A DNA stretch of 39,938 nucleotides from a virus. Location: positions 1 through 39,938 of IMG/VR virus record IMGVR_UViG_3300045988_020036. One strand, written 5' to 3'. Of this stretch, positions 1,164-39,527 are shown piece by piece; position 1 is the first letter of the stretch; the number at the start of each line of letters is the position of its first letter. The notes beneath the pieces were generated by a model, which was not told the origin of the DNA, did not search any database, and worked only from the letters and a program-made list of their open reading frames with translations. The translations under genes were made by a program, and so were the position numbers.

Positions 1164-2423
1164 TTACAAAAATGCAGCAGCTGCAGGGGCAAGTGTAGTT
1201 TCTTTTTTGCTCCACAGTCGCTTGACGATGCAGGACAGGCTATCCGGTGCATCATCATGCTCGGCTTCTTCGTTGTAGTCGCAAATCTGGTTGATGTACG
1301 CTTTGTCCGTCCCATCCACAAACACGACATTTTTCCACTCAGGCTTTAGCACGCTGGAAATCTTCTCGAATTTGTTCTGGTTTTCGTGGTACTCCACACA
1401 CCGTTCCCCACGCCGCCGCAAATCCTTTGCCAGATATCCCTTGTCACCGTTGTTCTCGCAGTAAATCACCCCGGCGTTAAACATTTTCCGATACCGGATA
1501 ATGTCATCCTTGCAGTCATCAACGTGCTTTCTCCACATCTTGCCAAAAACATAGTATTTCTCATTGCGTTTCTTACAGATAGTAAACGCTGTGTAATCCT
1601 CTCCGCCATAGGCGGCATCCACATGGCAAATGCCTTGTTCCGCAAGGGCAGGATCAGCACCAGTTACCGGGGCCCGGAATATCACATCATCGGAAGCAAT
1701 GTGCCGCAGTTCGTAGTTTGCGGCGAACAGGGAAGCGGTCATACTGTCCCGGATTTTTGCCAGCTTTTCTTTGCTTATCAGACCTGTGGAGTAACAATCG
1801 TATCTTTCCGGCTCCTTTACAAGGGTAAACGCATCATCTGGGTGCCATGGTGTGCCGATAAACACAATGCGGCCATCTCTAGTTACAATGTTTCGGAGTT
1901 CTCGCACTATCGCTTTTGTCTTTTCTCGTTCCGCTTTACTCAAACGGTCTTGTAGGTTTACTACGTCATCACAGATTATCAAATCAGCGTGCTTGCCGGT
2001 CAAACTTCCGCCACAGCCGCACCCAACAAGTTGCTCTGCGCCTCTTGGACTGTCATAGGTGGAAACGGTCATACTTGTTGAATTTGCGGTAGTCAAATAT
2101 ATTTTGCTTCCAGTAAGCACTTCGGCCATATATCGAAACGCCTCATTCTCAAAAACTTTCTGAGCTTGGGCTATTGATTCTGCTACGTCTGAATCGGTTT
2201 TCCGCATAAACAAAGCATTTTTTGCATGATATAATACCGACCACATAGCTAGAGCTACTGAAAGCGCAGAGGATTTATAGCTAAGTCTGTGCGCTTGCAA
2301 CGAATAGTCATCGTCTCCATAAATGATATGTTGCATCCATTTCCCGTGAAGATCATCCGTTAAATCCTTAAATCCAACCATGCGGCCAACCGCAGCCGGG
2401 TATTCACGCCATATTCTCCACAC
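1164..2423 (-). CDS. terL: Terminase large subunit
   Basis: 419-aa ORF with a Walker-B-like DLIICDDV, a deviant Walker-A-like RLSYKSS and a C-terminal nuclease-like region (IGTPWHPDD, HVDAAYGGEDYTAF). It follows the small terminase gene. The start is GTG and the frame is open further upstream, so the true start is uncertain. Confidence 0.9.
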   Translation of the reverse strand: MWRIWREYPAAVGRMVGFKDLTDDLHGKWMQHIIYGDDDYSLQAHRLSYKSSALSVALAMWSVLYHAKNALFMRKTDSDVAESIAQAQKVFENEAFRYMAEVLTGSKIYLTTANSTSMTVSTYDSPRGAEQLVGCGCGGSLTGKHADLIICDDVVNLQDRLSKAEREKTKAIVRELRNIVTRDGRIVFIGTPWHPDDAFTLVKEPERYDCYSTGLISKEKLAKIRDSMTASLFAANYELRHIASDDVIFRAPVTGADPALAEQGICHVDAAYGGEDYTAFTICKKRNEKYYVFGKMWRKHVDDCKDDIIRYRKMFNAGVIYCENNGDKGYLAKDLRRRGERCVEYHENQNKFEKISSVLKPEWKNVVFVDGTDKAYINQICDYNEEAEHDDAPDSLSCIVKRLWSKKETTLAPAAAAFL

Positions 2424-7006: not shown

Positions 7007-7202
7007 TGTCAGTCCTCCGGTTCCATGCTTCAATTGCTTCTGGTTCTTTCGCGTAATGACCAGTAGAAGCACCACATCCACCAATGTTTGCACTACAGAT
7101 CACAACATAATCCCGAAAGTTGTATTCTTTGATGGCCACTCCATGCAGTTCAGGGTTGATGAACCCGCAAAACGGCCAGGGCTTCAATTTGATTTCATCC
7201 AT
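6993..7202 (-). CDS. lar: Lar-family restriction-alleviation-like protein
   Basis: LKPWPFCG...C..GGCGAS...EPEAIEAWNRR matches the Lar zinc-ribbon pattern ending in AWNRR. The first knuckle has W where Cys is expected. Confidence 0.65.
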   Translation of the reverse strand: MDEIKLKPWPFCGFINPELHGVAIKEYNFRDYVVICSANIGGCGASTGHYAKEPEAIEAWNRRTDNGNQ

Positions 7203-7205
7203 GGT

Positions 7206-12365: not shown

Positions 12366-12854
12366 TTACCGGATTCTCAAGCTCTCGCCCAGGTCGCCCA
12401 AAGTGGCGAATGGAAGGGAGTTCCCGGCTTCCAGGTATTCCCGGATTTTTGCCGTATCCGGTGCTCCGGGCTTTAACCACGCCGCCGGAACCTCTCCCTG
12501 AAGCTCTACCGGCTTCACGCCGCCGTTTTTCTGGATGTTGAAGGAGAACAGGGCGGTCTTGAAATTCGTCCGGCCTGTGGTCTTCATGGTGTCGAATAGC
12601 CGTTGCTTCAATGCGTCCTGCCGGTTCTTGATAGCGGTCTTCCGCTCCTGAAGCCGCTTGATTTCGGCGTCAATTTGGGCGGTGTCTCCGTCCATGCTCT
12701 TGATGATCTTTGCGTAGCCATCGGCCTTTGTATCCATATCTGCTTCGATCATCTCAATTGTGTCGAACACTGCTTCCTCCGGGATCTCCGGGTCAAGCAG
12801 TTTGTCGAACACATCTTCCCACTCTTGGGACATTTGATAAAGTGATAAGCTCAT
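12366..12854 (-). CDS. Siphovirus Gp157-like protein
   Basis: MSLSLYQMSQEWEDVFDKL...DTIEMIEADMDTKADGYAKIIKSM...EIKRLQERK fits the coiled-coil family pattern. Confidence 0.7.
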   Translation of the reverse strand: MSLSLYQMSQEWEDVFDKLLDPEIPEEAVFDTIEMIEADMDTKADGYAKIIKSMDGDTAQIDAEIKRLQERKTAIKNRQDALKQRLFDTMKTTGRTNFKTALFSFNIQKNGGVKPVELQGEVPAAWLKPGAPDTAKIREYLEAGNSLPFATLGDLGESLRIR

Positions 12855-12855
12855 G

Positions 12856-12884
12856 TTGACAAATCCTTTCTTATCGGTTATAAT
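12856..12884 (+). promoter_or_regulatory. Perfect-consensus sigma-A/sigma-70 promoter on the plus strand (antisense to the early operon)
   Basis: TTGACA (12856-12861), 17-nt spacer, TATAAT (12879-12884). The -10 box is centred in the 7-1-7 palindrome cggttat-a-ataaccg (12875-12889). Confidence 0.7.
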
Positions 12885-12890
12885 AACCGT

Positions 12891-12955
12891 GTTATCCGAA
12901 TCTTTCCTTACTGAACCGCTGCCGGGCTTCCTTCCCGGTGGCGGTTCTTTTTTTT
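12891..12955 (+). ncRNA. Putative ~60-65 nt antisense small RNA ending in an intrinsic terminator
   Basis: Hairpin 12913-12926 / loop cttcctt / 12934-12947 has 14 bp. Its two wobble positions are G.U only in the plus sense. T8 follows at 12948-12955. No plus-strand ORF is present. The 5' end is inferred from the promoter. Confidence 0.6.
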
Positions 12956-13157
12956 ACAGCAGTTCAGCAGCTTCTACACCAAGGGATTCAGCGATTCTTC
13001 CCAGCAGGGACAAGGAAGGCTCAACGGCTCCAATCTCTACTCTGCCGATCATGGACTGGGTAACATATACCTTTTCCGCAAGCTCCTTCTGGGTGTATCC
13101 CTTCAGTTCCCGAAGCTGCTTCATTTTTTCATAGTTCAAAGATTTCACTTCCTTCAT
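12954..13157 (-). CDS. XRE-family HTH protein (Cro-like candidate)
   Basis: LKGYTQKELAEKVYVTQSMIGRVEIG is a canonical HTH_3 motif. The start could instead be ATG 13124 (MKQLRELKG...). Confidence 0.8.
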   Translation of the reverse strand: MKEVKSLNYEKMKQLRELKGYTQKELAEKVYVTQSMIGRVEIGAVEPSLSLLGRIAESLGVEAAELL

Positions 13158-13492: not shown

Positions 13493-13696
13493 CTACTCCA
13501 CCTCAGCTTCCTCGTTAAACTCCACCATGGAATCTACGCAGTCCAAACAGTACCGTTCGTCACGCCCAGGGATATGCACCAGCAATGGATCTGTGATGGG
13601 CTTACCACACCGCCCACAAATCGGGAGCCGTTGCAGTACCTTGTCCCATTGCGCTTCCCGGTGTTCCGCTTGCCTTACGGCATCAGCCCAGATCAT
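13493..13696 (-). CDS. Small zinc-ribbon-like protein
   Basis: CGRCGK...CLDC; 67 aa. Confidence 0.5.
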   Translation of the reverse strand: MIWADAVRQAEHREAQWDKVLQRLPICGRCGKPITDPLLVHIPGRDERYCLDCVDSMVEFNEEAEVE

Positions 13697-14354: not shown

Positions 14355-14544
14355 CTCCTTCCTGTTTTATCACCGTCAAGCACCGAACGAGCAATTTCCG
14401 GGTGGTCGTATCTTTTACATGGGGATGGATACCCAATACCCAGAACCATAAAAAACGGGTGCGCTCATCTTGTCACGGTGTTGCCCTGCCTCATCGGCGC
14501 CGGGCGGGCGGTCCCGGCGGACGGCCCAGAGGCCGTTTCGGCTA

Positions 14545-38135: not shown

Positions 38136-39527
38136 TTACTCCTTTTTGGGTGGAACAGGGAAAATGTGTTCTCCCCTGGATGAATAGTGAATTGCCACTC
38201 TGTTGGAATTGTGATATTGATCATTTTTGAAGTATTGCCCAACTATGATATCGGTATCTACATATTCAACAATTTTATAGTGCCCGTCCGGCTTCTTCCT
38301 TGCGTCAACGTCTCCAGTCGTTGCATATTTTTGTAAAACGATATCTAATTCCTTTTCATCAATAGTAACTATATTTTGCGGCGTTTTACCAGTTTTCTGT
38401 CTCTGTGCTAAGTAGGTTTTATACTCATGCGTTCCTTCAATATGCTTCCGCTGCTGCCCCCTATTTAACTTTAGCGGGATTTCTCCGGAATCAATCTTCT
38501 CCTTTAGTATAGCACGGTTTTCCCCATTTTTCAACTCATTTTCCAGCTGCTTAAGTTCTAGTTTCTGCGTTTTTTGCAATTCTAAATCTTTCCCGGCTTT
38601 CCATTCCTCATAACTCACCTTACCCAGCTTAGATGCTCTGGGTGCATTTGGATCATGGAACTTATCAACGGAAATCATGGTGCAACGGCAATTGTAAATC
38701 AGGTATCCCGGTGCGCTTGGGTCTCCAGGATATCGGATTTTGTAACCGCCAACCTCAAACGGCTCGCCAATGTCAACCGTCTGTCCATCCAGCATTCTAT
38801 GCTCATGCCGTGTCTTTCCGTCCAGTGTTGCAAGCCACTGCTGTTTGATCTTGATACCCATCGACTTTGCCTTTTGATAGGTGTCAATTCTCCCGGCACA
38901 TTCGGCAGCTGTTGTGGCAGTCCGGGCATTCCTCACCGCAGCATTATAGCCCATCTGCGCAACGGTCACAAGCCGCTGAGCAATCTCAGGAATGGGGTCA
39001 CCCAGAAGGATGCCTTTGGTGATTGCAGCGTTTATGTGCTGACGATTCCACCGCATATCCATAGGAATGTCCACAGACGGTAGGGGCAGAATATCAGGAT
39101 CATCCCGAATCAGCCGCTCTACGGTGCTTCTATCGTACAATGTCCAGGACAGATTCACGTTCATGTTCTTCTCGATGGCGAAGGCGGCATAGTTGGCATT
39201 GGTGGCGTAAACATCCAGTGCTTCTTCTCCTACAATCTTCATTGCAATCTTGTCGGCATTGGTGAAGTCGGTAGTCAGAACATCTATCATATCCTGCAAA
39301 TGCTTCGCCTTGCCCAAGGTTTCTTCGCGCCATGCCTTATATGCCCGCTTCTTCATCGTCCCGGCTTCTACCATTTCGGCATATTTCTTATCTTCGCCCG
39401 CAAAGGTGTCGAGGATTCCTTTTAGCCGCTCCTTTGCTTCCTCCAAAGTCTCGCCGTACACCTTGCGGATTTTTCGCTCCATGGCATCCAGCCGCTTGTC
39501 TGTCCACTCATGCCCATAGTCTGCCAT
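38136..39527 (-). CDS. Head morphogenesis protein (SPP1 gp7 / Mu F family) fused to a C-terminal Ntox50/PBECR-like RNase-toxin domain
   Basis: MuF core: WLATLDGKTRHEHRMLDGQ...YPGDPSAPGYLIYNCRC. C-terminal ~110 aa: GQQRKHIEGTHEYKTY...GDVD...IVGQY...RVAIHYSSRGEHIFPVPP, which matches the toxin-50 signature (Q.KHI.G...Y ... IG.Y ... IHYS..G.HI.P..P). Confidence 0.85.
   Translation of the reverse strand: MADYGHEWTDKRLDAMERKIRKVYGETLEEAKERLKGILDTFAGEDKKYAEMVEAGTMKKRAYKAWREETLGKAKHLQDMIDVLTTDFTNADKIAMKIVGEEALDVYATNANYAAFAIEKNMNVNLSWTLYDRSTVERLIRDDPDILPLPSVDIPMDMRWNRQHINAAITKGILLGDPIPEIAQRLVTVAQMGYNAAVRNARTATTAAECAGRIDTYQKAKSMGIKIKQQWLATLDGKTRHEHRMLDGQTVDIGEPFEVGGYKIRYPGDPSAPGYLIYNCRCTMISVDKFHDPNAPRASKLGKVSYEEWKAGKDLELQKTQKLELKQLENELKNGENRAILKEKIDSGEIPLKLNRGQQRKHIEGTHEYKTYLAQRQKTGKTPQNIVTIDEKELDIVLQKYATTGDVDARKKPDGHYKIVEYVDTDIIVGQYFKNDQYHNSNRVAIHYSSRGEHIFPVPPKKE

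Follow-up and report, generated by a model that had tools for sequence, protein, structure and literature searches.

An OOP-like antisense transcription unit that marks the edge of the recombination/replication module in temperate phages of gut Clostridia and most likely controls it through RNA

The closest described counterparts of the locus reported here are short antisense RNAs encoded by temperate phages and prophages. The sar RNA of P22 (68/69 nt) regulates ant as a direct translational block, through complementarity to the ribosome-binding site of that gene. In Firmicutes, convergent antisense RNAs that overlap their partners at the 3' end act via RNase III, as does the type I antitoxin SR4 of the bsrG system in the SPbeta prophage, and pervasive sense/antisense processing has been described in Staphylococcus aureus. 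The OOP RNA of lambda (77 nt) is made from the pO-oop-tO unit at the junction of cII and O; it acts on cII, whose coding sequence it overlaps by 52 nt at the 3' end, and RNase III cleaves the hybrid between the cII-O mRNA and OOP. A review of phage-derived small RNAs mentions no cis-antisense regulator from a Gram-positive phage, its only staphylococcal entry being the trans-acting SprY. Nothing relevant turned up when we searched the literature for such an element in Gram-positive phages or for its link to Gp157 or Sak4; a previous sequence-only reading of this DNA likewise knew of no described equivalent in SPP1-like Firmicutes phages.

The window analysed here is a stretch of viral DNA of 39,938 nt (IMG/VR record IMGVR_UViG_3300045988_020036) from a temperate virus that infects gut Clostridia. 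Its plus strand carries a promoter, a predicted short RNA and an intrinsic terminator within the early operon, which runs on the minus strand (Table 1). The promoter, hairpin, T8 tract, dyad and overlap of the T-run with the XRE stop codon were each present as the sequence-only reading had placed them. The hairpin starts 28 nt past the -10 box; on the opposite strand, the Gp157 start codon reads CAT at 12852-12854 and the XRE stop codon TTA at 12954-12956. The occurrence of this antisense unit within the operon is not a matter of chance. A perfect TTGACA-N16-18-TATAAT promoter is expected 0.01 times per window and two were found, the other being the main early promoter (15017-14989, minus strand). 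A mechanically called plus-strand ORF (12853-13134) was considered as a small-peptide gene and rejected: it begins upstream of the predicted transcription start, and its frame was seen on reading to be broken in the aligned relatives. Because this frame is not conserved, we agree that no plus-strand ORF fits the unit.

Table 1. Features of the antisense unit and its flanking genes in the window
Feature	Position	Strand	Remarks
-35 hexamer TTGACA	12856-12861	+	Antisense promoter; separated by 1 nt from the start codon of Gp157 on the opposite strand
Promoter spacer, 17 nt	12862-12878	+	Includes the complement (12864-12870) of the Gp157 Shine-Dalgarno (SD) sequence GAAAGGA
-10 hexamer TATAAT	12879-12884	+	With the -35 box, a 12/12 sigma-A promoter (12856-12884)
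Dyad CGGTTAT-A-ATAACCG, 7-1-7	12875-12889	.	Straddles the -10 box
Predicted non-coding RNA, ~65 nt	12891-12955	+	Start inferred 7 nt past the -10 box; 3' end inside the T-run
5' tail, 22 nt, predicted unstructured	12891-12912	+	Complements a predicted single-stranded spacer of the sense mRNA
Terminator hairpin GAACCGCTGCCGGG/CTTCCTT/CCCGGTGGCGGTTC	12913-12947	+	14 bp (12 Watson-Crick and 2 G.U); 7-nt loop
T8 tract, intrinsic terminator	12948-12955	+	Overlaps the XRE stop codon
XRE/HTH_3 regulator gene, 67 aa	12954-13157	-	Upstream early gene; stop codon fused to the T-run
Sipho_Gp157/Mu Gam-like end-protection protein gene	12366-12854	-	Downstream; first in the recombination/replication module

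In direct comparison with lambda, the unit has the layout of OOP. Both are found in temperate phages and consist of a self-contained promoter and intrinsic terminator; each lies antisense in the early operon, where regulatory genes meet the first gene of the replication module; both specify a short non-coding RNA (77 nt for OOP, a predicted ~65 nt in the window); and both point towards the repressor gene. Their promoters overlap the start region of the downstream gene as well, the -10 box of lambda (CATAAT) holding the complement of the O start codon, whereas in the window it is the -35 box that abuts the Gp157 start codon. Nevertheless, the two differ in several respects. The first is descent: they share no homology, and the model R1 scores oop at 12.4 bits, compared with 55-85 bits for members of the family described below. 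The second is the position of the RNA, which in the window overlaps only the stop codon of a variable gene rather than the 3' coding region of one given regulator upstream. Furthermore, pO is a weak promoter (9/12) with a LexA site, whereas the promoters of the window family score 10-12/12 and carry a covarying dyad, and the family resides in Clostridia, where the unit can occur twice per genome. The likeness to P22 sar is looser. The predicted RNA is of similar size, antisense and transcribed from its own promoter in a phage regulatory operon, but it stops ~20 nt short of the downstream SD and covers neither the SD nor the start codon; of the two layouts to which the unit was first likened, that of OOP is borne out. 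With RNAs of the SR4/bsrG type the unit shares the host phylum, a short antisense RNA, a strong terminator and the double-strand RNase mechanism that we propose, but no small hydrophobic toxin ORF is found beside it, the neighbours being an XRE HTH and a Gam-like gene in the window and diverse genes elsewhere.

We collected 122 units from IMG/VR viral contigs and Clostridia MAGs, comprising 59 distinct RNAs and 32 distinct hairpins, the pattern-derived set being dominated by one metagenome project and two subfamilies. The full-unit filter was passed by 109 of 117 IMG/VR pattern matches and the covariance model by 13 of 100 GTDB pattern loci, all 13 of them Clostridia; no cultured isolate is among the host genomes recovered. 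A leave-one-out covariance model from which the window was excluded recovered the unit at 12856-12951 (64.1 bits, E = 1.8e-10) and gave no other significant match in the window. When Gp157 loci were located by protein anchor, leaving the DNA unconstrained, a promoter, hairpin and T-run antisense to Gp157 were present in 24 of 26; among these loci the stems of different lineages are not alike, and in every case the antisense fold is the more stable, by 3-10 kcal/mol. Further contigs also contain the unit, including an occurrence upstream of a Zn-ribbon ORF that precedes Gp157, and some phages have two such units in one early operon. Rfam 15 holds no family for the element, the whole window having been searched at gathering score and a local scan at E up to 10 returning only noise.

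Alignment of the relatives, which had been suggested as a check, shows a conserved promoter together with a covarying stem and -10 dyad. The -35 box is TTGACT or TTGACA in 112/122 units, its TTG being invariant or nearly so, and the spacer is 17 nt long in 118/122. The -10 box never varies at A2 and T6, and at T1 and A4 it is at least 90% conserved. A promoter score of at least 9/12 is reached on the antisense strand in all 90 units scored and on the sense strand in one, so that the promoter is kept strand-specifically across relatives, as expected of a cis-encoded antisense small-RNA gene. The predicted RNAs measure 52-66 nt (median 59), with a 5' tail of 14-34 nt (median 22), and the T-run ends in TTA, the TAA stop of the preceding gene, in 99/122 units. 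In the stem, 95.4% of alignment cells are paired, a value matched by none of 500 shuffles and compared with 44-61% in slid controls, and 7 of 11 pairs have changed on both sides in the alignment, which was fitted to the covariance model. The 3' arm of the hairpin, GGGGGCGGC, is conserved and G-rich. The sequences of tail and loop are not conserved across the family; the architecture is.

The terminator is also strand-specific. In the window, folding of both strands gave -26.9 kcal/mol for the plus-sense RNA (z = -6.3; 0/200 shuffles as good) and -22.7 kcal/mol for the minus sense, which contains a 2x2 internal loop, and at the hairpin the minus strand has neither a following T-run nor a promoter-like site. 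Each of the 19 distinct stems contains one to three G.U pairs, in place of which the mRNA sense has A.C mismatches; alignment cells hold 34 G.U versus 1 A.C, and the family-wide count of G.U pairs is 63 in the antisense sense versus 11 in the mRNA sense. This asymmetry shows selection on the antisense-sense hairpin rather than on its mRNA-sense counterpart, and the antisense fold is the more stable in 59/59 RNAs. A strand-specific, covarying intrinsic terminator is what a cis-encoded antisense small-RNA gene should possess, and the earlier proposal of a terminator working for the plus strand only holds for the window. Its central claim, a self-contained antisense small-RNA gene in the early lytic operon, is strongly supported, since conservation extends to the promoter, the predicted length of the RNA, the covarying stem, its antisense-only G.U pairs and the T-run. 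The unit is real and under selection, and it very probably gives rise to a discrete antisense RNA of the predicted form.

In the recombination/replication module, Gp157 is followed by Sak4-like, DUF1064 and DUF6291 genes. The gene upstream of the unit belongs to one of at least six unrelated types across the family, and the flanking genes include XRE/HTH, membrane, coiled-coil, Zn-ribbon, Gam-like, ATPase and methylase genes. The unit thus marks the 5' edge of the module whatever its neighbours, and the tie to an XRE/Gp157 setting, as initially drawn, has to be given up because neither gene is constant. The XRE gene of the window, first called Cro-like, lies 1.8 kb from the switch, a position that is cII-like rather than cro-like, and the hosts are gut Clostridia (Oscillospiraceae, Lachnospiraceae) and not those of SPP1, to which the virus had been likened. 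Hammerhead ribozymes occur in the same early operons, indicating that the early mRNAs are processed in any case.

The window had no DNA similarity by blastn to any of 50,697 deposited phages, and an exact search for the stem in GTDB genomes gave no match. The unit is absent at the Gp157 homologues of Listeria PSA, Lactobacillus A2 and T25, Staphylococcus IME1348_01 and Enterococcus phiEG37K, since the upstream ORF there ends 0-18 nt before Gp157, and it is likewise absent from IMG/VR loci whose Gp157 is 29-39% identical. Among close relatives, L001 and L104-106 lack it, and L109 retains the hairpin and T-run without a promoter; the unit is therefore dispensable.

The dyad around the -10 box is a further variable element. 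Its arms reach at least 6 bp in 53% of units, compared with 14% of shuffles, and 40 distinct arm sequences occur, so that it is lineage-specific and not a fixed box; its wobble positions number 22 and 12 on the two strands. In the sense mRNA it is predicted to form a hairpin 4 nt upstream of the Gp157 SD, present in the MFE fold. The sequence-only reading had suggested an operator. The dyad itself is real and covaries, but it does not do so with XRE: L003 and L016 have XRE proteins that differ by one residue outside the recognition helix and yet different dyads, L017 has a very different XRE protein and the same dyad as L016, and the window holds a single copy. A role as XRE operator is thus unsupported. 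We also rejected the dyad as a symmetric, bidirectional -10 box serving a sense promoter of the Gp157 module, in view of the single unit in 90 with an adequate sense score.

From this analysis, the unit most likely controls, through RNA, the expression of the virus's recombination and replication genes. We propose that a near-consensus sigma-A promoter in the 5' UTR of the first recombination/replication gene fires against the early operon, and that its antisense RNA of ~60-65 nt ends at the strong, strand-specific terminator, whose T-run is fused to the preceding gene's stop codon. Like lambda OOP, the RNA would act in cis, its tail pairing with the matching stretch of the polycistronic early mRNA. 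This stretch is predicted to be single-stranded and flanked by two hairpins, one formed by the -10 dyad and the other by the imperfect complement of the terminator. A double-strand-specific RNase, for example RNase III, would attack the duplex, and cleavage would split the early mRNA at the boundary between accessory/regulatory and recombination/replication genes. Together with head-on polymerase traffic at the convergent promoter, this would place a threshold or delay on the Gam, Sak4 and replication genes, damping leaky read-through in lysogens and uncoupling the stability of the two mRNA halves during lytic growth. Retention of the architecture but not of the tail and loop sequences argues for cis rather than trans action, because a cis-antisense RNA co-evolves with its target automatically and its sequence is free to vary. 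As the SD and AUG remain uncovered and the overlap with upstream coding sequence is confined to a stop codon, neither sar-type occlusion of the ribosome-binding site nor OOP/cII-type targeting applies directly. Whether the RNA serves mainly to gate or process the early mRNA in cis at this junction we consider an even call.

The alternative that survives best is transcriptional interference alone, in which occupancy of the convergent promoter and polymerase collisions attenuate read-through, the terminator serves to limit antisense transcription and the RNA is a by-product with no activity of its own. The promoter is near consensus, and no part of the unit is better conserved than its key positions; the RNA sequence lacks conservation outside the terminator, the RNA avoids the SD and start codon, and two units per early operon in some phages would fit a series of brakes. 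Interference is compatible with an RNA role as well, however, and the narrow range of tail lengths and the complementary mRNA stretch kept single-stranded between two hairpins suggest that pairing matters; moreover, lambda OOP works when supplied in trans from plasmids. We therefore think it unlikely that interference is the entire explanation.

A more ambitious extension of the RNA-based reading is that phages of gut Clostridia carry the unit as a portable 'RNA gate' cassette, its variable tail and loop being specificity determinants of an RNA-level, repressor-independent immunity. A constitutive prophage RNA would silence the leaky resident replication module and would destroy the early-mRNA junction of a superinfecting phage carrying the same type of cassette, much as in plasmid copy-control incompatibility groups or P1/P7 c4 immunity. 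Diversifying selection would then explain the invariant architecture and the differing sequences; L003 and L016 are otherwise near-identical phages whose unit sequences differ, with compensated changes clustered in the dyad. We offer this as a speculation that is probably wrong in its full form.

An RNA acting in trans is very improbable. In that explanation, the unit is a moron-like gene, expressed from the prophage with its own promoter and terminator, whose CU-rich tail (UCUUUCCUUAC in the window) and loop (CUUCCUU) serve as an anti-SD seed against host or phage mRNAs, and the tail does pair imperfectly with the Gp157 ribosome-binding site (-11.3 kcal/mol). That site, however, ranks only 30th of 266 candidates in the target scan, which gave neither enrichment nor an outlier. 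Of 78 family RNAs, 23 (29%) contain anti-SD-like 5-mers, compared with 24% of shuffles, the C+T content, at 0.63, is close to the strand background (0.57), the motif is absent from the most abundant subfamily, and no conserved seed exists across the family. The anti-Shine-Dalgarno idea attached to the window unit thus fails at the family level.

Equally hard to sustain is the view that no dedicated RNA function exists, the hairpin being a 3' stabiliser or processing signal of the sense mRNA, or a terminator against stray antisense transcription, and the promoter-like sequence a product of constraints on the ribosome-binding site. The relative L109, with its promoterless hairpin, would fit, as would a second antisense terminator-like hairpin inside the cI-like gene of the window, also promoterless; the promoter spacer overlaps the downstream SD, so that conservation is partly shared. 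Against this stand the G.U asymmetry, the rarity of a perfect promoter, and the pattern of conservation: the invariant positions coincide exactly with those read by sigma-A (TTG; TA.A.T), the boxes being a constant 17 nt apart, and translation imposes nothing of the kind where these positions are found, between SD and AUG and upstream of the SD. Least credible of all is an origin-associated transcript, a short G-rich RNA that primes or activates replication, for although the unit adjoins recombination/replication genes, its 3' arm is conserved and G-rich, and OOP was once considered a primer (pO still influences replication), an efficient intrinsic terminator would release the RNA and leave no stable hybrid, the unit sits at varied junctions and sometimes twice per genome, a reading of the window site revealed no iterons or AT-rich unwinding element, and the primer idea has been rejected for OOP itself.

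Few hosts among the dominant gut Firmicutes (Oscillospiraceae, Lachnospiraceae) have been cultured, and how their temperate phages are regulated has therefore hardly been explored. A conserved and readily recognised OOP-like unit would provide a sequence marker of the replication-module boundary in metagenomic phage genomes, and it would represent convergent evolution, in an unrelated phage lineage, of the design of the lambda cII-oop-O junction. The G.U asymmetry exemplifies a compact way of overlapping signals, in which one stem terminates transcription in one direction and is weakened for the mRNA reading through in the other. For the viruses themselves, the unit would be a concrete regulator, open to test, of leaky prophage expression or of when the phage commits to lytic growth.

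The record represents a temperate siphovirus genome of ~40 kb, circularly permuted, with a plus-strand block that includes the cI-like gene and the integrase. All of its other genes lie on the minus strand, driven by a divergent early promoter, in the order small accessory genes, XRE, the antisense unit, Gam-like Gp157, Sak4-like annealing protein, DUF1064 and DUF6291, followed later by the terminase, portal/MuF and tape-measure genes. The unit therefore sits where the early accessory/regulatory genes give way to the recombination/replication module, and is directed towards the repressor gene. The Mu F-like head morphogenesis protein (38136-39527, minus strand) has at its C-terminus a 'Bacterial toxin 50' (Ntox50) domain (E 4.4e-11), which would make it a MuF-toxin fusion that is packaged with the virion. 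At the genetic switch (14968-15017), two near-perfect promoters lie on opposite strands. Because their -10 hexamers overlap, within ATTATAAT (14989-14996), polymerase bound at one should exclude polymerase from the other. The minus-strand promoter has an 8-bp palindrome, CTAATTAG, in its spacer, and its predicted leftward start falls within the mechanical ORF 14743-14988; the gene of this ORF therefore probably starts at an internal Met.

Features of the antisense unit, its flanking genes, the genetic switch and the plus-strand block
Feature	Position	Strand	Details
Sipho_Gp157 gene	12366-12854	-	Pfam E 1.9e-36; PHROG 'Mu Gam-like end protection'
-35 box	12856-12861	+	TTGACA; sequence reading
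-10 box	12879-12884	+	TATAAT; 17-nt spacer from -35 box
Terminator hairpin	12913-12947	+	14 pairs, 7-nt loop; begins 28 nt past -10 box
T8	12948-12955	+	directly 3' of hairpin
HTH_3/XRE gene	12954-13157	-	67 aa; other flank of unit
Switch promoter to cI-like gene	14968-14996	+	TTGACT-17-TATAAT
Switch promoter to early operon	15017-14989	-	TTGACA-17-TATAAT
cI-like HTH gene	15063-15431	+	plus-strand block
Two genes of no assigned function	within plus-strand block	+	
Tyrosine integrase	17847-18947	+	plus-strand block

The sequence-only reading had proposed a self-contained antisense small-RNA gene here, and its promoter, hairpin, T8 and minus-strand flanking genes were each found in the window where it had placed them. 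The Gp157 start codon is 1 nt away from the -35 box, and the TAA stop of the XRE gene overlaps the T-run. The unit is not due to chance, since the expectation for a perfect -35/-10 pair is 0.01 per window (two are present, the second being the main early promoter, 15017-14989 on the minus strand) and the plus-sense RNA folds at -26.9 kcal/mol (z -6.3), better than the minus sense. Folding both strands also bore out the proposal that the terminator works for the plus strand only: in the minus sense a 2x2 A.C internal loop takes the place of the two G.U pairs, the fold weakens to -22.7 kcal/mol and no U-tract follows. An Rfam search returned no match for the unit.

We then asked how far this arrangement is kept among relatives fetched by Gp157 protein relationship alone, with no constraint on the DNA. 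The unit, antisense and directly upstream of Gp157, was present in 24 of 26 loci, with a -35 box (TTGACA, TTGACT or TTGCGT) adjoining the start codon, a spacer of 16-17 nt, a TA[TAC]A[AC]T -10 box and a predicted RNA of 57-69 nt bearing a GC-rich hairpin and T-run. The sequences of stem, loop and tail vary among lineages. The gene upstream of the unit varies as well (XRE, an HTH_17 protein, a small membrane-like protein or a 240-aa protein), and contigs obtained through a large protein database added further variants. In four related loci (L002, L102, L107 and L110) a Zn-ribbon ORF of ~70 aa precedes Gp157, and the unit lies upstream of that ORF, adjoining its start codon. Among the loci examined, the unit was absent at Gp157 relatives of 39% identity or less, as it was in the characterised phages PSA, A2, T25, IME1348_01 and phiEG37K. 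One further locus (L109, ~2200-2290, minus strand) is without promoter and tail but keeps the terminator hairpin and T-run, adjoining the RBS of a Zn-ribbon ORF; either this is a decayed copy or the hairpin has a role of its own.

A DNA pattern combining the SD complement, -10 box, 3' stem arm and T-run gave at least 119 matches in IMG/VR, and 109 of the 117 among the matches listed passed the full-unit filter; GTDB, ~6 times larger, gave 108 matches, only 18 of which passed. Among the matches listed, the pooled set holds 122 units with 59 distinct RNAs (52-66 nt, median 59) and 32 distinct hairpins; the promoter spacer is 17 nt in 118 of the 122, and the T-run ends in TTA, the TAA stop of the preceding gene, in 99. 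The gene whose start adjoins the -35 box is, among these matches, mostly a 62-71-aa Zn-ribbon protein and otherwise Gp157, an SMC/RecN-like ATPase, a C5 methyltransferase, a RecT-/YqaJ-like or AbrB-like protein or an 82-aa protein of no assigned function; this proximity to start codons is partly built in, because an SD complement beside the -10 box is part of the pattern, and the set is dominated by one metagenome project and two subfamilies. As judged from these sequences, the family is much larger than the Gp157-linked set and is not tied to Gp157. The window homologue of the Zn-ribbon protein, a 67-aa CxxC...CxxC ORF (13493-13696, minus strand), lies two genes upstream of XRE. The gene is thus on the upstream side of the unit in the window and on the downstream side in most IMG/VR phages among the matches listed, which points to mosaic recombination around the cassette.

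A covariance model of the family (R1) was built from 31 representatives, leaving out the window and its two near-identical relatives. Scores were 64.1 bits (E 1.8e-10) for the window unit and 15.4 bits for the next match in the window; over 100 sources the model found 106 units. This second match, non-significant (E 0.28), is a 14-pair hairpin with a T-rich tract (15286-15326, minus strand), antisense in the linker region of the cI-like repressor gene. A 48-aa minus-strand ORF (15346-15492) overlaps the 3' end of this gene, and the hairpin comes just past the stop codon of that ORF; no promoter was identified for the hairpin. Several phages proved to carry a pair of units on one strand, separated by 2-3 kb. 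Two non-identical copies per early operon occur in the phage contigs L007 (943-1031 and 2904-2996, the second adjoining the start codon of a 199-aa ORF), L232, L255, L257, L297 and L309; L257 also carries a FuFi-1 RNA (RF02986, 131.6 bits; 7045-7203, minus strand). Of 100 GTDB pattern loci, 13 passed R1 and all 13 are from Clostridia (Oscillospiraceae, Lachnospiraceae/Agathobacter, Ruminococcus, Peptococcaceae and unclassified Clostridiales), matches from other phyla all being rejected. For several of these loci the contig is 80-160 kb long, a length suggestive of integrated prophages.

Strand specificity extends across the family. All 19 distinct stems of the first set have 1-3 G.U pairs in the antisense sense that become A.C mismatches in the mRNA sense, and the reverse case occurred once; RNAalifold gave 12 pairs, four of which show compensatory double changes, with G.U in 34 cells and A.C in one. 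Among the matches listed in the pooled set, the G.U pair count is 63 when read as antisense RNA and 11 when read as mRNA, and the antisense fold is the stabler in 59 of 59 RNAs, by a mean of 6.2 kcal/mol. This asymmetry marks selection on the predicted antisense RNA hairpin, and spares the sense mRNA a perfect stem in its read-through path. In the R1-based alignment, pairing holds in 95.4% of cells (a level reached by 0 of 500 shuffles; slid controls, 44-61%), both sides change in 7 of 11 pairs and covariation scores 0.418 versus 0.242, figures that lean towards the model because the alignment was fitted to it. Conservation, covariation and a one-strand promoter together provide strong comparative support for a self-contained antisense small-RNA gene in the early-lytic operon, and a discrete antisense RNA is very probably made from it.

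The dyad around the -10 box, suggested earlier as an operator, is real: arms of at least 6 bp occur in 53% of units and 14% of flank-shuffled controls, and arms of at least 7 bp in 32% and 4.5%, respectively. An XRE operator is not supported, as the dyad does not covary with XRE and no second copy was found within the window. The family has 40 different arm sequences; the XRE proteins of L003 and L016 (related loci) differ by one residue outside the recognition helix and their dyads differ (CGGTTA versus CTGGTA), whereas a third, L017, has a very different XRE and a dyad identical to that of L016. Both arms are contained in the sense mRNA only, where the dyad is predicted to fold into a small hairpin, with 3-9 nt between it and the downstream SD. 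Its wobble positions, 22 versus 12 by strand, do not clearly favour either strand. It may act as an mRNA 5' hairpin, a DNA structure or a site for a co-evolving protein. A symmetric bidirectional promoter was rejected, the sense strand reaching at least 9/12 in 1 of 90 units and the antisense strand in 90 of 90. The idea of a CU-rich anti-Shine-Dalgarno seed found no support: 16S 3' tail mimic motifs occur in 23 of 78 RNAs and 24% of shuffles, the C+T fraction of 0.63 compares with 0.57 for the strand background, and the Gp157 RBS ranks 30th of 266 candidate pairing sites.

The layout had been likened to lambda OOP or P22 sar. Scanning of the fetched lambda cII-oop-O region upheld the first comparison: pO (TTGAGT-17-CATAAT, its CAT being the complement of the O start codon) and tO (a 12-bp hairpin, then a T-run) form, like the unit, an antisense promoter-terminator cassette at a regulatory/replication gene junction, and in each case promoter and replication-gene start region overlap. 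OOP RNA overlaps the cII 3' end by 52 nt and its hybrid with cII-O mRNA is acted on by RNase III. The unit, in contrast, lacks this overlap of upstream coding sequence, its promoter is by sequence far stronger than pO and its flanking genes are interchangeable; lambda oop scores only 12.4 bits under R1, so there is no homology. The sar comparison fell, since no RBS is covered, and a type I antitoxin was rejected as there is no toxin ORF. A phage sRNA review, when searched, mentioned neither Gram-positive bacteria nor Bacillus, Listeria or Clostridia, and for staphylococci it listed only the trans-acting SprY; targeted literature searches found no equivalent of the unit.

The predicted RNA consists of an unstructured ~22-nt tail and the terminator hairpin, and the sense mRNA is predicted to present the exact complement of the tail as a purine-rich, mostly single-stranded stretch between two hairpins. 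Pairing of tail and spacer would nucleate a duplex extendable through the hairpins to ~65 bp. Duplexes of this kind are RNase III substrates, and cleavage would divide the early transcript where the modules meet, leaving the two hairpins suitably positioned to cap the 3' and 5' ends so formed. Fixed architecture with a variable tail and loop fits a cis-acting RNA, because such an RNA co-evolves with its target automatically, and argues against a trans seed. The near-consensus convergent promoter should also interfere with incoming polymerases. An effect due purely to such transcriptional interference seems unlikely; cis gating or processing of the junction has about an even chance of being the main role.

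A type II hammerhead ribozyme (RF02276, 43.2 bits, gathering score 37) lies on the coding strand between small early ORFs of the window (14480-14543, minus strand), and others lie on the early-operon sense strand of five relatives (L003 602-666, L017 1367-1433, L019 1373-1438, L111 926-992 and L115 928-992), 1-2.4 kb upstream of Gp157. Self-cleavage of the early polycistronic mRNA is therefore probable, and segmentation of this mRNA would already be part of the biology of these phages, which is circumstantial for the antisense RNA model. The net role we favour is a threshold or timer on Gam/Sak4/replication gene expression, with mRNA stability uncoupled across the junction. On this comparative evidence we rate the unit as a putative OOP-like cis-antisense RNA, independently evolved and widespread in temperate phages of gut Clostridia.
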